Of a stretch of DNA of 64,000 nt, positions 3,001-33,984 are shown in pieces. The notes below the pieces were generated by a model, which had not been told where the DNA came from, made no database searches, and was given only the letters and a program-made list of their open reading frames with translations. The first letter of the stretch is position 1; each line of letters starts with the position of its first letter. The position numbers and the translations under genes are program-made. The stretch is taken from assembly GCF_988243305.1 (NCBI RefSeq), contig NZ_OZ547136.1; one strand, given 5' to 3'.

Positions 3001-3577
3001 CGCCGTCAACATCGAAAATTACTGCCTGGTTGCCCACTCGCGGTGTGATCAGCGGATGATATTCCACACCCCGGATGCTTTCCGGCATGTAAATAATGTC
3101 AGACGGAAAGCCCTCGCGCAGCAGCGTGCTTTTGCCGCTACCCGCAGGACCAATGACCATATACCACGGCAACTGCCACAGATAACTGCGGTTATCCAGA
3201 TGGCGGCGCAGGCGCAGCAGCCAGTGATCCAAATATTGCTGCTGGTGGTGGAGTTCCACGGTCAACGGATCTTTTTCTTCCTCCCGCTGCTGTTTCTGCT
3301 GTTTTTCCAGCTTTTGCAGACGCTTCATTACCCGCCAGGTGAGCCAGACCAGAGCGATAAGCCCCCAGACGGCGGTCGCCAGCCAGCGGTTTGCCAGCGG
3401 AGCCAGCCAGTGCTGCTCATAGAGCGTCCATTTTGGACCCTGCCACCAGATCCACACCAGCAGAAAAATCCATGCCAGCGCCAGCAGCCAGGCGGCGGAT
3501 ACCTTGAATCGCGGCATCGCTGGCCTGAGCGCAGATCTCAACGAGCTGAACAGTCGGGATGTGGGAAATTTGAACAC
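50..3577 (-). CDS. tssM: Type VI secretion membrane subunit TssM (IcmF family)
   Basis: 1175-aa ORF; N-terminal hydrophobic helices (AWLLALAWIFLLVWIWW); Walker A-like GPAGSGKST; size and position typical of TssM; last gene of the minus-strand T6SS operon. Confidence 0.9.
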   Translation of the reverse strand: MFKFPTSRLFSSLRSALRPAMPRFKVSAAWLLALAWIFLLVWIWWQGPKWTLYEQHWLAPLANRWLATAVWGLIALVWLTWRVMKRLQKLEKQQKQQREEEKDPLTVELHHQQQYLDHWLLRLRRHLDNRSYLWQLPWYMVIGPAGSGKSTLLREGFPSDIIYMPESIRGVEYHPLITPRVGNQAVIFDVDGVLTSPGGDDLLHRRLREHWLGWLMETRARQPLNGLILTLDLPELLTADKLRREALVQNLRQQLQEIRQCLHCRLPVYVVLTRLDLLTGFAALFHSLDKKDRDAILGVTFTRRAHENDDWRSELSTFWQTWGQQMNLALSDLMLVQTGAALRSAVFSFSRQMQGTGEIVTSLLAALLDGENMDVMLRGVWLTSSLQRGQVDDIFTQSAARQYGLGNSSLATWPLVETTPYFTRRLFPEVLLAEPNLAGENSVWLNSSRRRLTAFSACGAALAALLVGSWHHYYNQNWQSGVNVLAQAKAFMDVPPPQGKDEFGNLQLPLLNPVRDATLAYGDYRDHGFLADMGLYQGVRVGPYVEQTYIQLLEQRYLPSLMNGLIRDLNNAPPESEEKLAVLRVVRMMEDKSGRNNEAVKQYMARRWSNEFHGQRDIQAQLMAHLDYALEHTDWHAQRQSGDSDAISRWTPYDKPVINAQHELSKLPIYQRVYQTLRTKALSVLPADLNLRDQVGPTFDNVFVAGNDEKLVIPQFLTRYGLQSYFIKQHDGLVELTALDSWVLNLTQSVAYSEADREEIQRHITEQYLSDYTATWRAGMDNLNVRDYEAMPALTDALEQIISGDQPFQRALTALRDNTHALTLSGKLDDKAREAVINEMDYRLLSRLGHEFAPENSALEEQKDKASTLQAVYQQLTELHRYLLAIQNSPVPGKSALKAVQLRLDQNSSDPIFATRQMAKTLPAPLNRWVGKLADQAWHVVMVEAVHYMEVDWRDNVVKPFNEQLAGNYPFNPRASQDASLDAFERFFKPDGILDNFYKDNLRLFLENDLTFGDDGRVLIREDIRQQLDTAQKIRDIFFSQQNGLGTQFAVETVSLSGNKRRSVLNLDGQLVDYSQGRNYTAHLVWPNNMREGNESKLTLVGTSGGAPRSIAFSGPWAQFRLFGAGQLTNVTSDTFNVRFNVDGGAMVYRVHVDTEDNPFTGGLFSQFRLPDTLY

Positions 3578-30533: not shown

Positions 30534-30772
30534 AACGAAAAGCCCCTTACTTGTAGGAGGTCTGACCACTTGTGATGATATGGTTGTAGTGGATGTAAAA
30601 ACATTTAGCAATGTGTTTACAATATAATTACAACAAAGCTCACATTGTTGCTGTTTTTATCCGCACTTCAGGTCAAAAAGTCCTGGTCATAGCACCTGCC
30701 CGTACTTCTCGCTTTTGGCGGTATCCGGTACACTGCATTTTGTCTATTACATTTATGCTGAAGGATATCCTC

Positions 30773-31351
30773 ATGTACCAGGATCTTATTCGTAACGAAC
30801 TGAACGAAGCGGCGGAAACGCTGGCTAACTTTTTAAAAGATGACGCCAATATTCACGCCATTCAGCGCGCGGCGGTCCTGTTAGCAGACAGCTTTAAAGC
30901 CGGTGGCAAAGTGCTTTCCTGCGGCAACGGCGGCTCCCATTGCGACGCTATGCACTTTGCCGAAGAGTTGACCGGTCGCTACCGTGAAAACCGTCCGGGC
31001 TACCCGGCGATTGCCATTTCTGACGTTAGTCATATTTCCTGCGTCGGTAACGATTTTGGTTTCAATGATATTTTCTCCCGTTACGTTGAAGCGGTAGGTC
31101 GCGAAGGCGATGTACTGCTGGGGATCTCCACCTCCGGTAACTCTGCAAACGTGATCAAAGCGATCGCGGCGGCGCGTGAGAAGGGGATGAAAGTGATCAC
31201 CCTGACCGGTAAAGACGGCGGTAAAATGGCTGGCACAGCGGATATCGAAATTCGCGTACCGCACTTTGGTTATGCCGACCGCATTCAGGAGATCCACATT
31301 AAAGTTATCCATATCCTGATCCAGTTAATTGAAAAAGAGATGGTTAAGTAA
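30773..31351 (+). CDS. gmhA: Sedoheptulose-7-phosphate isomerase GmhA (LpcA)
   Basis: ATG at 30773 ([17 protein letters not shown]...) with AAGGA ribosome-binding site; 192 aa; SIS domain. Confidence 0.9.
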
Positions 31352-31455
31352 GTCTGGCGTAGGCCGAATAATGCGTTTACGCCGCATCCGACCTGAAAAT
31401 ACTTAAATCAATCTTCGCCGGGGGCCATGCGCTCCCGCTGTTGTGGAGGTTACCC

Positions 31456-32223
31456 ATGTGCGAATTGCTCGGGATGAGCGCCAACGTCCCTACCGATATC
31501 TGCTTTAGTTTCACCGGTCTGGTGCAGCGTGGTGGTGGAACCGGGCCACATAAAGATGGCTGGGGCATTACCTTTTACGAAGGTAAAGGCTGTCGCACAT
31601 TTAAAGATCCGCAACCCAGCTTTAATTCCCCCATCGCCAAACTTGTCCAGGACTACCCGATAAAATCCTGTTCGGTGGTGGCTCATATTCGCCAGGCGAA
31701 TCGGGGCGAGGTGGCGCTGGAAAATACTCACCCGTTTACCCGCGAGTTATGGGGGCGTAACTGGACTTATGCCCATAACGGACAACTGACGGGGTACAAA
31801 TCACTGGAAACCGGCAACTTCCGCCCGGTCGGTGAAACCGACAGCGAAAAAGCCTTCTGCTGGCTCCTGCATAAATTAACGCAGCGTTACCCGCGCACAC
31901 CGGGCAACATGGCGGCAGTGTTTAAATATATCGCCTCACTGGCGGATGAACTGCGGCAGAAGGGCGTTTTCAACATGCTGCTTTCTGACGGGCGCTATGT
32001 AATGGCGTATTGCTCGACTAATTTACACTGGATCACCCGCCGCGCGCCGTTTGGCGTGGCAACGTTGCTGGATCAGGATGTGGAAATCGACTTCAGCTCG
32101 CAGACCACACCGAATGATGTGGTCACGGTGATTGCGACACAGCCCCTGACGGGCAATGAAACCTGGCAAAAGATTATACCAGGCGAATGGCGCTTATTTT
32201 GCCTCGGGGAGCGTGTAGTTTGA
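31456..32223 (+). CDS. yafJ: Class II glutamine amidotransferase YafJ
   Basis: [15 protein letters not shown]... with Cys2 nucleophile; GGAGG ribosome-binding site upstream; 255 aa. Confidence 0.85.
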
Positions 32224-32934
32224 TGCCAGCTGTGGTTGCACAACTTCGTGGCTTAACGGCTTGCTGACCACGTAACGGCCATTGACCACAGAAACGGTCG
32301 GTGGCTTACGGGTTTGCTCAAAGTAGTCGTAGCCCGGTTTCAGTTGCTCCCAGAAGTCCTTAAAGTTGGAATACTTATGGCGCTTCATATTGGCGTCGGT
32401 CATGCGGAACGGGTAAATACTCACTTGCACGCTCGGCTGACCAAACACCAGCGCACCAGTAACGAACTGGAAGATCTCATCAATACCCTGATTGGTCATC
32501 GCGTAGCAGCCGATGGAAACACAATCGCCGTGGATCATCAGGTATTTCCCTTCATAACCATGCGCACGGTCATAGGCATTGGGGAATCCAATATTAATCG
32601 CTTTGTAGTAACGGCTGTCTGGTTTTAACTGATTACGCTGGACGCTATAAAACCCTTCCGGGCTTTTGAAATCGCCCTGACGCTGTTTTGGCCCTAAACC
32701 GCCGGAATATTTACAGATTTTATAACTGTCGAGCAGCTGATATTGCTCGCCCATTTTGACGTAGAGATCGAGCGTACGTTCTTCCTTGAAGATCTGGATG
32801 TAGACAGGGGATCCCATCAACTGCTGCTTATACTCTTTGCTCACTGGCGTGGTTGAGCTACTGCTGCCCAGCAAACCGGCAAACGAAACGCACGGGATCA
32901 ACAACATCGCAAGAATTAATGCGATTTTACGCAT
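32194..32934 (-). CDS. yafK: L,D-transpeptidase family protein YafK
   Basis: 246 aa; signal peptide; catalytic [12 protein letters not shown] motif of the YkuD family. Confidence 0.85.
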
Positions 32935-33225
32935 ACTGCTTATTCCTTGATAAAACGGTTACACACGCCAGGACGGCAAAATGGATCCCAAATCGGAATA
33001 GTCTGGATTTGGAAGGCTCACATTATCACCAAAAGAGTTTTACGCAAGCCTGTCGGCGCAGGGTTTACAAATTTAGCACAGGGGCAGTTTTCAATAGTCC
33101 GAAAAGCGCATGTATCATTTATTTCCTAAGATTATGAAACCTCAATAGTAATATGCAAATAAGCAATTAATAATTCCGTTTACTCCTCCGGTCTTTTAAA
33201 ATTCTCACCTTCATTCAGCCGGTTT

Positions 33226-33984
33226 ATGTCCTTCATGTCTTCGTTCTTGCTCGGCAGATTTCTGCATCCAGGCGTGTTTTCGTTATGCGTTTTGCTCCCT
33301 TTACTCGCCAGCGCCACCACATCACATATCTCATTCAGCTACGCCGCCCGCCAGCGGATGCAAAACCGTGCGCGTTTATTAAAACAGTACCAAACCCATC
33401 TGAAAAAACAGGCCAGCTATATTGTGGAAGGCAATGCCGAAAGCAGAAAGGCGCTGCGCCAGCACAACCGCGAACAGATAAAACAGCATCCAGAATGGTT
33501 TCCTGCGCCGCTCAAGGCGAGTGACAGACGCTGGCAGGCGCTGGCGGAAAACAACCACTTTTTAAGCAGCGACCATCTGCATAACATCACCGAAGTGGCG
33601 ATCCACCGCCTGGAGCAGCAGCTTGGCAAGCCTTACATCTGGGGCGGCACGCGGCCTGATAAAGGCTTTGACTGTAGCGGGTTGGTTTTTTATGCCTACA
33701 ACAAGATCCTCGAGGCGAAACTCCCACGCACGGCTAATGAGATGTATCACTATCGCCGGGCAACCATTGTGGCGAATAACGACCTGCGCCGGGGAGATTT
33801 GCTGTTTTTTCATATCCACAGCCGCGAGATTGCCGACCATATGGGCGTGTATCTGGGCGATGGACAGTTTATTGAGTCGCCGCGCACCGGGGAAACCATA
33901 CGGGTAAGTCGGTTAGCTGAACCTTTCTGGCAGGATCATTTTTTAGGCGCGCGCAGGATTTTGACGGAAGAGACGATTTTGTAG
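33226..33984 (+). CDS. yafL: NlpC/P60-family lipoprotein YafL
   Basis: 252 aa; NlpC/P60 motif GFDCSGLVFYAY plus downstream His; matches YafL as recalled. Confidence 0.8.
   Translation: MSFMSSFLLGRFLHPGVFSLCVLLPLLASATTSHISFSYAARQRMQNRARLLKQYQTHLKKQASYIVEGNAESRKALRQHNREQIKQHPEWFPAPLKASDRRWQALAENNHFLSSDHLHNITEVAIHRLEQQLGKPYIWGGTRPDKGFDCSGLVFYAYNKILEAKLPRTANEMYHYRRATIVANNDLRRGDLLFFHIHSREIADHMGVYLGDGQFIESPRTGETIRVSRLAEPFWQDHFLGARRILTEETIL

Follow-up and report, generated by a model that had tools for sequence, protein, structure and literature searches.

Where the convergent genes yafJ and yafK meet, their coding sequences share DNA, which raises the questions of whether both proteins truly end there, what holds the arrangement in place, and what becomes of two transcripts that run into each other. 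We examined these questions in a window of 64,000 nt (the whole stretch of DNA analysed, from contig NZ_OZ547136.1), which carries the E. coli region fadE - gmhA (lpcA) - yafJ - yafK (dpaA) - yafL, a region 95-99% identical in 5,423 of 5,426 complete E. coli genomes. The features of the junction itself are as follows:

31456-32223, plus strand: yafJ coding sequence, 255 aa, class II glutamine amidotransferase-like (open reading frame, Pfam, PDB, RefSeq).
32194-32934, minus strand: coding sequence of yafK, which is dpaA (ldtF), 246 aa (open reading frame list, Pfam YkuD, PDB 8ikr).
32194-32223, both strands: dual-coding overlap of 30 nt, encoding YafJ residues 247-255 plus stop and YafK residues 238-246 plus stop.
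32194-32196, minus strand: yafK stop codon TAA, read on the plus strand as the YafJ Leu247 codon TTA.
32221-32223, plus strand: yafJ stop codon TGA, read on the minus strand as the YafK Ser238 codon TCA.

The initial annotation placed a 30-nt 3' overlap of convergent yafJ and yafK at 32194-32223 and described the last ten codons of each gene as lying on opposite strands of the same DNA. The sequence, the open reading frame list and RefSeq all agree with these coordinates, and the ten codons comprise nine sense codons and one stop codon for each gene. The frames on the two strands are exactly aligned, codon position 1 lying opposite position 3 and position 2 opposite position 2, and the protein C-termini encoded within the overlap are ...LFCLGERVV* for YafJ and ...SNYTLPEAK* for YafK. 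For yafJ, we set aside the upstream TTG start at 31441 given by the mechanical open reading frame list and took the ATG at 31456, which yields a protein of 255 aa with the Met-Cys N-terminus typical of class II amidotransferases. RefSeq shows the identical layout for K-12 (yafJ 244327-245094, dpaA 245065-245805; K-12 coordinate = window coordinate + 212871), where the overlap sequence does not differ from that of the window, and the same overlap is annotated in the closest E. coli match (NZ_AP022087).

All three features that define a convergent overlapping protein-coding gene pair are present, each stop codon lying inside the coding sequence of its partner on opposite strands (32221-32223 on the plus strand, 32194-32196 on the minus strand). 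The locus is a member of this known class: as in the 75 convergent overlapping gene pairs counted in E. coli K-12, two real opposite-strand genes share their 3' ends, an arrangement that has been explained by stop-codon movement (Huvet and Stumpf, 2014, PMC4161906). As a convergent pair, yafJ/yafK has a codon-aligned antisense register in which the antisense stops correspond to sense TTA, CTA and TCA, and no categorical difference separates it from the others; it stands out only for an exact length kept across at least three Enterobacterales families and for its visibly locked rare codons.

Conservation was evaluated at 80 Enterobacteriaceae species-representative loci, with both stop codons placed by tblastn and in-frame extension; the genera sampled included Escherichia, Citrobacter, Enterobacter, Klebsiella, Raoultella, Salmonella, Kluyvera, Leclercia, Lelliottia, Kosakonia and Yokenella, among others. 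The overlap measured 30 nt in all 80 representatives, as well as in K-12 and the nearest E. coli genome, and the same length was found in Cronobacter, Shimwellia, Erwinia amylovora, Pantoea and Photorhabdus (Morganellaceae), and in a metagenomic lineage (L087) whose YafK is 58% identical. Overall, the exact 30-nt overlap was present in 86 of the 87 other lineages examined, with both stops in the same place. The exception is a metagenomic contig (L091, positions 3306-3322), in which the two genes share 17 nt in a different phase, YafK ends in a different tail, YafJ has 11 additional residues (266 aa) and the gene context reads pepD-dinB-yafK-yafJ-gmhA. This contig shows that the 30-nt form can be replaced; its two genes nonetheless still overlap, and an earlier end of one of the genes in orthologues, the outcome that the initial annotation had named as fatal to its claim, was not found.

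Since the overlap is present in Enterobacteriaceae, Erwiniaceae and Morganellaceae, it is older than the split of at least three Enterobacterales families. Closest YafK relatives outside this group (Thorsellia, L089, and a metagenomic lineage, L090) carry yafK without a neighbouring yafJ, and a non-overlapping ancestral state was not seen among the lineages sampled, a set without Yersiniaceae, Pectobacteriaceae and Hafniaceae. Gene order is also kept, gmhA-yafJ-yafK (30600-32934 in the window) recurring from Escherichia to Erwinia, Pantoea and Photorhabdus (L083-L088). YafJ is thus always encoded between an LPS-core heptose gene and the Lpp-detaching amidase, possibly a hint of an envelope-related role. 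One locus differs in gene integrity: in Citrobacter koseri NCTC10786 (L051, 3712-4488), 9 positions of yafJ are gapped in the DNA alignment with the window and 5 stops fall in frame, with yafK intact and the 3' overlap normal, so that this yafJ is either a pseudogene or affected by assembly indel errors.

At the protein level, the two tails that share these 30 nt are of different kinds. Pfam GATase_4 spans residues 1-252 of the 255 in YafJ (E = 1.8e-112), PDB 1te5 (a "conserved hypothetical protein") aligns with the same residues 1-252, and the terminal LFxLGER is kept from E. coli out to Photorhabdus; the YafJ tail is part of its conserved fold. YafK matches Pfam YkuD (E = 2.9e-8), and its residues 20-246 are identical to PDB 8ikr, i.e., DpaA, a periplasmic amidase that detaches Braun's lipoprotein from peptidoglycan (PMC8263019, PMC10653827). 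The DpaA crystal model, obtained from V8-trimmed protein, stops at residue 229 of 246 (PMC10653827), and family-wide YafK homology stops at about residue 222-229 (150 representatives at 50% identity). The last ~17 residues of YafK are a lineage-specific tail, missing from the crystal model, which varies at sites that are synonymous for YafJ. The constraint on the overlap is asymmetric, with YafJ dominating, which fits the protein data (the GATase_4 and 1te5 alignments, the end of YafK homology and the extent of the DpaA model).

The absence of these 17 residues from the crystal model would also fit an annotation artefact, in which one of the proteins ends earlier or one of the open reading frames is not a gene. 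This reading is effectively refuted: each stop is simply the first one in frame for a gene that is well supported, DpaA has been expressed and purified as a full-length construct (residues 20-246; PMC10653827), and the stop positions are kept in 86 other lineages, together with locked codons in the partner frame.

This locking was quantified on 81 sequences (the 80 Enterobacteriaceae species representatives plus the window). Mean column entropy of the overlap was 0.234, the fourth lowest value among the 391 codon-aligned 30-nt windows that make up the 1.2 kb around it. Third-position entropy was 0.40 inside the overlap vs. 1.08 outside for yafJ, and 0.28 vs. 1.02 for yafK, so that synonymous-site variability is roughly threefold lower within the overlap; when 10 third positions were drawn at random 100,000 times, no draw reached the conservation of the overlap in either gene. 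Purifying selection is visible in both frames. Each stop also pins the partner gene to a rare codon. YafJ Leu247 is encoded by TTA (56 sequences) or CTA (25 sequences) and by no other Leu codon, these two being the complements of the yafK stops TAA and TAG; in other invariant Leu columns, five codons occur, mostly CTG. Similarly, YafK Ser238 is TCA in 81 of 81 sequences, whereas other invariant Ser columns use several codons. TTA, CTA and TCA are rare codons, and an antisense frame in this register thus stays open easily. Loss of the yafK stop would extend YafK by 56 aa in the window, and by 15-85 aa in the commonest cases among other species; loss of the yafJ stop would extend YafJ by 10 aa in the window, and by 10-157 aa in the commonest cases elsewhere.

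From the anatomy, conservation and codon locking observed here, and from read-through, Rho dependence and dsRNA demonstrated for K-12 in the literature, we consider it likely (probability of about 0.8) that this is a genuine, old tail-to-tail overlap held by reciprocal purifying selection, with RNA pairing as a low-level by-product. The flexible C-terminal tail of YafK is read from the strand antisense to the last beta-strand region of the YafJ fold, and yafK ends at the first antisense stop met there, the complement of the YafJ Leu247 codon, just as yafJ ends at a TGA complementary to the YafK Ser238 codon. The YafJ fold would constrain LFxLGER, and both stops would be kept because their loss lengthens the partner protein by tens of residues; because the fold and the two stops are kept, the rare codons (TTA or CTA for Leu, TCA for Ser) would be frozen and synonymous change suppressed. 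We infer that the overlap arose by extension of the yafK tail onto the antisense strand of the yafJ 3' end. On the RNA side, as others have shown in K-12, neither transcription unit has an intergenic terminator, and transcription of both continues past the junction into the opposing gene; this read-through is halted mainly by Rho, which acts on RNA that is no longer translated, and the complementary 3' parts of the two transcripts pair and are then cut by RNase III.

The transcript evidence comes from K-12, under few conditions and from supplementary tables whose authors do not discuss the yafJ/yafK locus. Two sets of published features can be placed on the window by homology:

32195-32219, both strands: RNase III 21-nt dsRNA duplexes, from K-12 245066-245090 (PMC7373196 Table S3).
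31949-32448: p19-captured dsRNA cluster, from K-12 244820-245319 (PMC7373196 Table S1).

Huang et al. (2020) list a perfectly paired RNase III duplex at 245068-245089 (plus) and 245066-245087 (minus), with 1028 and 1027 reads, and a second one at 245069-245090/245067-245088, also inside the 30-nt overlap (PMC7373196). Duplexes across 245066-245090 have 21 paired nt, 2-nt overhangs and about 750-1650 reads per strand (PMC7373196 Table S3). The surrounding dsRNA cluster (id 23, "yafJ yafK") reaches 169 RPM, is classed as "3' & Full" and "Convergent" (PMC7373196 Table S1), and bears the "Convergent" operon entry of Conway (T 244972, P 246532; PMC7373196). Antisense RNA-seq reads in the same data amount to 17 for yafJ and 12 for yafK, as against at most 2.4 for neighbouring genes (PMC7373196). 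The initial annotation had also deduced transcriptional interference or antisense pairing between the two mRNAs from the overlap of the genes, and of these two, pairing is indeed documented by these K-12 duplexes and the dsRNA cluster (PMC7373196). The deduction itself is non-specific, because 276 of 370 convergent E. coli operons (75%) have overlapping 3' ends anyway, by a mean of 286 nt (Conway et al., 2014, PMC4161252).

Adams et al. (2021) report a Rho termination region at 245605 on the plus strand, antisense to yafK (Rho score 6.11, p = 3e-16; PMC7815308 Supplementary file 2), and another at 244775 on the minus strand, antisense to yafJ (Rho score 6.55, p = 2.8e-17; PMC7815308). Both are bicyclomycin-sensitive and are placed only to within the 800-nt windows of the method, with few reads mapping there (about 120 per 800 nt; PMC7815308). 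Rho regions within the opposing genes are what one would expect after ribosomes have been released from the RNA at the two stop codons, and in this the locus resembles the Rho suppression of antisense read-through described genome-wide (PMC7815308); unlike for that system as a whole, the yafJ/yafK data are from K-12 only, at 800-nt resolution, and the C:G bias in our window is weak. The C:G ratio past the stops is 1.06 on the plus strand and 1.08 on the minus strand, with local 60-nt patches of up to 1.5-1.7, which is weak as rut evidence. The locus behaves like known operons with overlapping 3' ends, with Rho clean-up and RNase III dicing.

Read-through into an opposing gene and dsRNA cut by RNase III are likewise shared by overlapping 3'-end operons (PMC4161252) and by the excludon (PMC7154746, PMC12288877); at yafJ/yafK, in contrast, the coding sequences themselves overlap, and there is no 3' UTR or intergenic terminator. 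It is worth asking whether yafJ/yafK could be a selected module of the excludon kind, in which convergent transcription and RNase III cleavage couple yafJ and dpaA negatively, freezing the geometry and tuning Lpp detachment by DpaA against YafJ activity. The dsRNA cluster spanning the junction, the RNase III duplexes exactly in the overlap, antisense read fractions above those of neighbouring genes, the order-level conservation of the overlap and of gmhA-yafJ-yafK synteny, and an extra synonymous constraint adjoining the overlap (see below) are all consistent with such a module. However, the defining effect of an excludon is mutually exclusive expression, and we found no such data for yafJ/yafK, nor any expression or phenotype data linking the two genes, whose names co-occur, among the full texts searched, in a single paper, a genome announcement. 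No evidence for transcriptional interference or another regulatory effect of the overlap was found in the literature, and both gene names go unmentioned in the main text of PMC7373196 and in its proteomics table (file 5). Moreover, convergent operons as a rule produce overlapping 3' transcripts, the locus yields few reads, L091 has re-phased its overlap with different tails, and the two stop codons together with the YafJ fold suffice to explain the conservation. We therefore regard a dedicated module as quite improbable and infer that pairing is a low-level by-product, as at most convergent E. coli operons, rather than a dedicated switch. Besides protein-level locking, the exact 30-nt conservation could nonetheless reflect some selection for the overlap or the RNA duplex itself.

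A further claim of the initial annotation was that the overlap leaves no room for an intergenic terminator. As far as intergenic DNA is concerned this holds, as there is none, and a consensus terminator scan gave no site downstream of either the yafJ or the yafK stop; what the claim missed is a terminator-like hairpin inside yafJ:

32161-32184, minus strand: conserved inverted repeat within yafJ (codons T236-G243), a candidate yafK terminator or 3'-end stabiliser (RNAfold).

On the minus strand, this hairpin reads GCCUGG(U/C)A-N8-UGCCAGGU, begins 10 nt past the yafK stop and is followed by UUCAUUG; the U-rich tail is found on this strand only, the plus strand continuing with GAAUGGCGC. A single weak plus-strand terminator site at 32181-32195 was rejected, as it precedes the end of yafJ and includes codon 246, which is variable. 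At a permissive threshold, Rfam gave no match across 31400-33000. Folding z-scores for the overlap and its flanks were unremarkable (-0.4 on the plus strand, -1.1 on the minus strand), and those of the downstream segments were -2.9 on the minus strand and -2.3 on the plus strand.

If functional, the hairpin would act as an intrinsic terminator of yafK, or as a stem protecting its 3' end, embedded within yafJ, so that the mature mRNAs would normally share only about 40-70 nt of sense/antisense sequence. RNAfold predicted an 8-bp stem in the window and stems of 8-10 bp in Enterobacteriaceae, Erwinia and Pantoea, with 96.4% of stem cells paired across 76 distinct sequences. The segment at 32153-32190, just outside the overlap, is also the least variable of the 1.2 kb, its synonymous sites being even more conserved than those of the overlap: among near-fixed four-fold sites, the third position of Thr ACC is invariant and Pro is encoded by the minor codon CCA in 82 of 87 sequences. 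Because constraint on the YafJ protein alone fails to explain this synonymous conservation, some function at the nucleic-acid level probably exists near 32153-32190.

Several observations nevertheless argue against an embedded terminator. The covariation test gave 0 compensatory changes and did not exceed shuffle controls, and RNAalifold predicted no pair in the hairpin region; because of these two results, we make no claim of a structured RNA. The stem is missing in Photorhabdus and L087, the consensus scan did not report it, and the U-tract that follows it is short as well as interrupted. The PMC7815308 data set lists no Term-seq 3' end for either yafJ or yafK, and the minus-strand end of Conway (244972), the dsRNA (to 244820) and the Rho region (244775) are all situated downstream of the hairpin. 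In addition, the fixed bases can be read on the minus strand as an extended -10-like motif, TGGCATAAT, which offers an alternative possible reason for the constraint at the hairpin. On balance, a terminating or protecting role for the hairpin seems unlikely.

Bidirectional intrinsic terminators have reportedly been described between convergent genes by Ju et al. in 2019. The yafJ/yafK junction resembles these in having a GC-rich inverted repeat, and differs from them in that the repeat lies within coding sequence, has a U-rich tail on the minus strand only and lacks a 3' end in the Term-seq data of PMC7815308. As there is no intergenic DNA, no scan site and a U-rich tail on one strand only, the locus does not have the GC-rich hairpin with a U-tract on both strands, between the genes, that characterizes a bidirectional intrinsic terminator.

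Taken to its furthest, the adjoining stem-loop invites the speculation that it forms, with the 30-nt overlap (32153-32223), a single selected RNA module predating the Enterobacteriaceae/Erwiniaceae/Morganellaceae split, which would set the dpaA 3' end and couple DpaA to YafJ via RNase III-cut duplexes. We consider this quite improbable; if true, it would hint at a place for YafJ, which is uncharacterised, in the envelope pathway of DpaA.

The window also carries a private variant in this region, ATG to ATA at yafJ codon 241 (32176-32178), i.e., M241I, which was not found in K-12, the closest E. coli match or any other lineage examined. On the minus strand, TGGCATAAT thereby becomes TGGTATAAT, which matches the extended -10 motif perfectly, and in the conserved hairpin one C-G pair is weakened to U-G.

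The overlap as such is already known, being annotated in RefSeq, with its overlapping transcripts and dsRNA present in published genome-wide tables. The additions made here are modest, namely that exactly 30 nt are conserved at the level of the order, that the codon locking is made explicit and that a conserved stem-loop adjoins the overlap. In practical terms, whoever edits the 3' end of yafJ or dpaA by deletion, tagging or recoding also changes the last 9 codons and the stop of the partner, along with the dsRNA region common to both, and care is needed when either gene is given a C-terminal tag, deleted without a scar or recoded synonymously; changing YafJ Leu247 to CTG, for example, would add 56 residues to DpaA in the strain of the window. 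Reciprocal codon locking is also seen here in clean textbook form, in a dual-coding segment that the order has conserved, and, if the conserved stem-loop is functional, the locus would exemplify a terminator or stabiliser hidden in coding sequence.

Beyond the overlap, the dinJ-yafQ toxin-antitoxin module, which lies between yafK/dpaA and yafL in K-12, is missing from the window, where about 224 nt (33075-33298) stand in place of about 830 nt of K-12, including the yafL start region. The closest E. coli match, NZ_AP022087, has the same layout without dinJ-yafQ and carries an intact flhA after yafL, where K-12 has the pseudogene lfhA. In the search of E. coli genomes, 15 matches to this chromosomal region sit on records labelled as plasmids.
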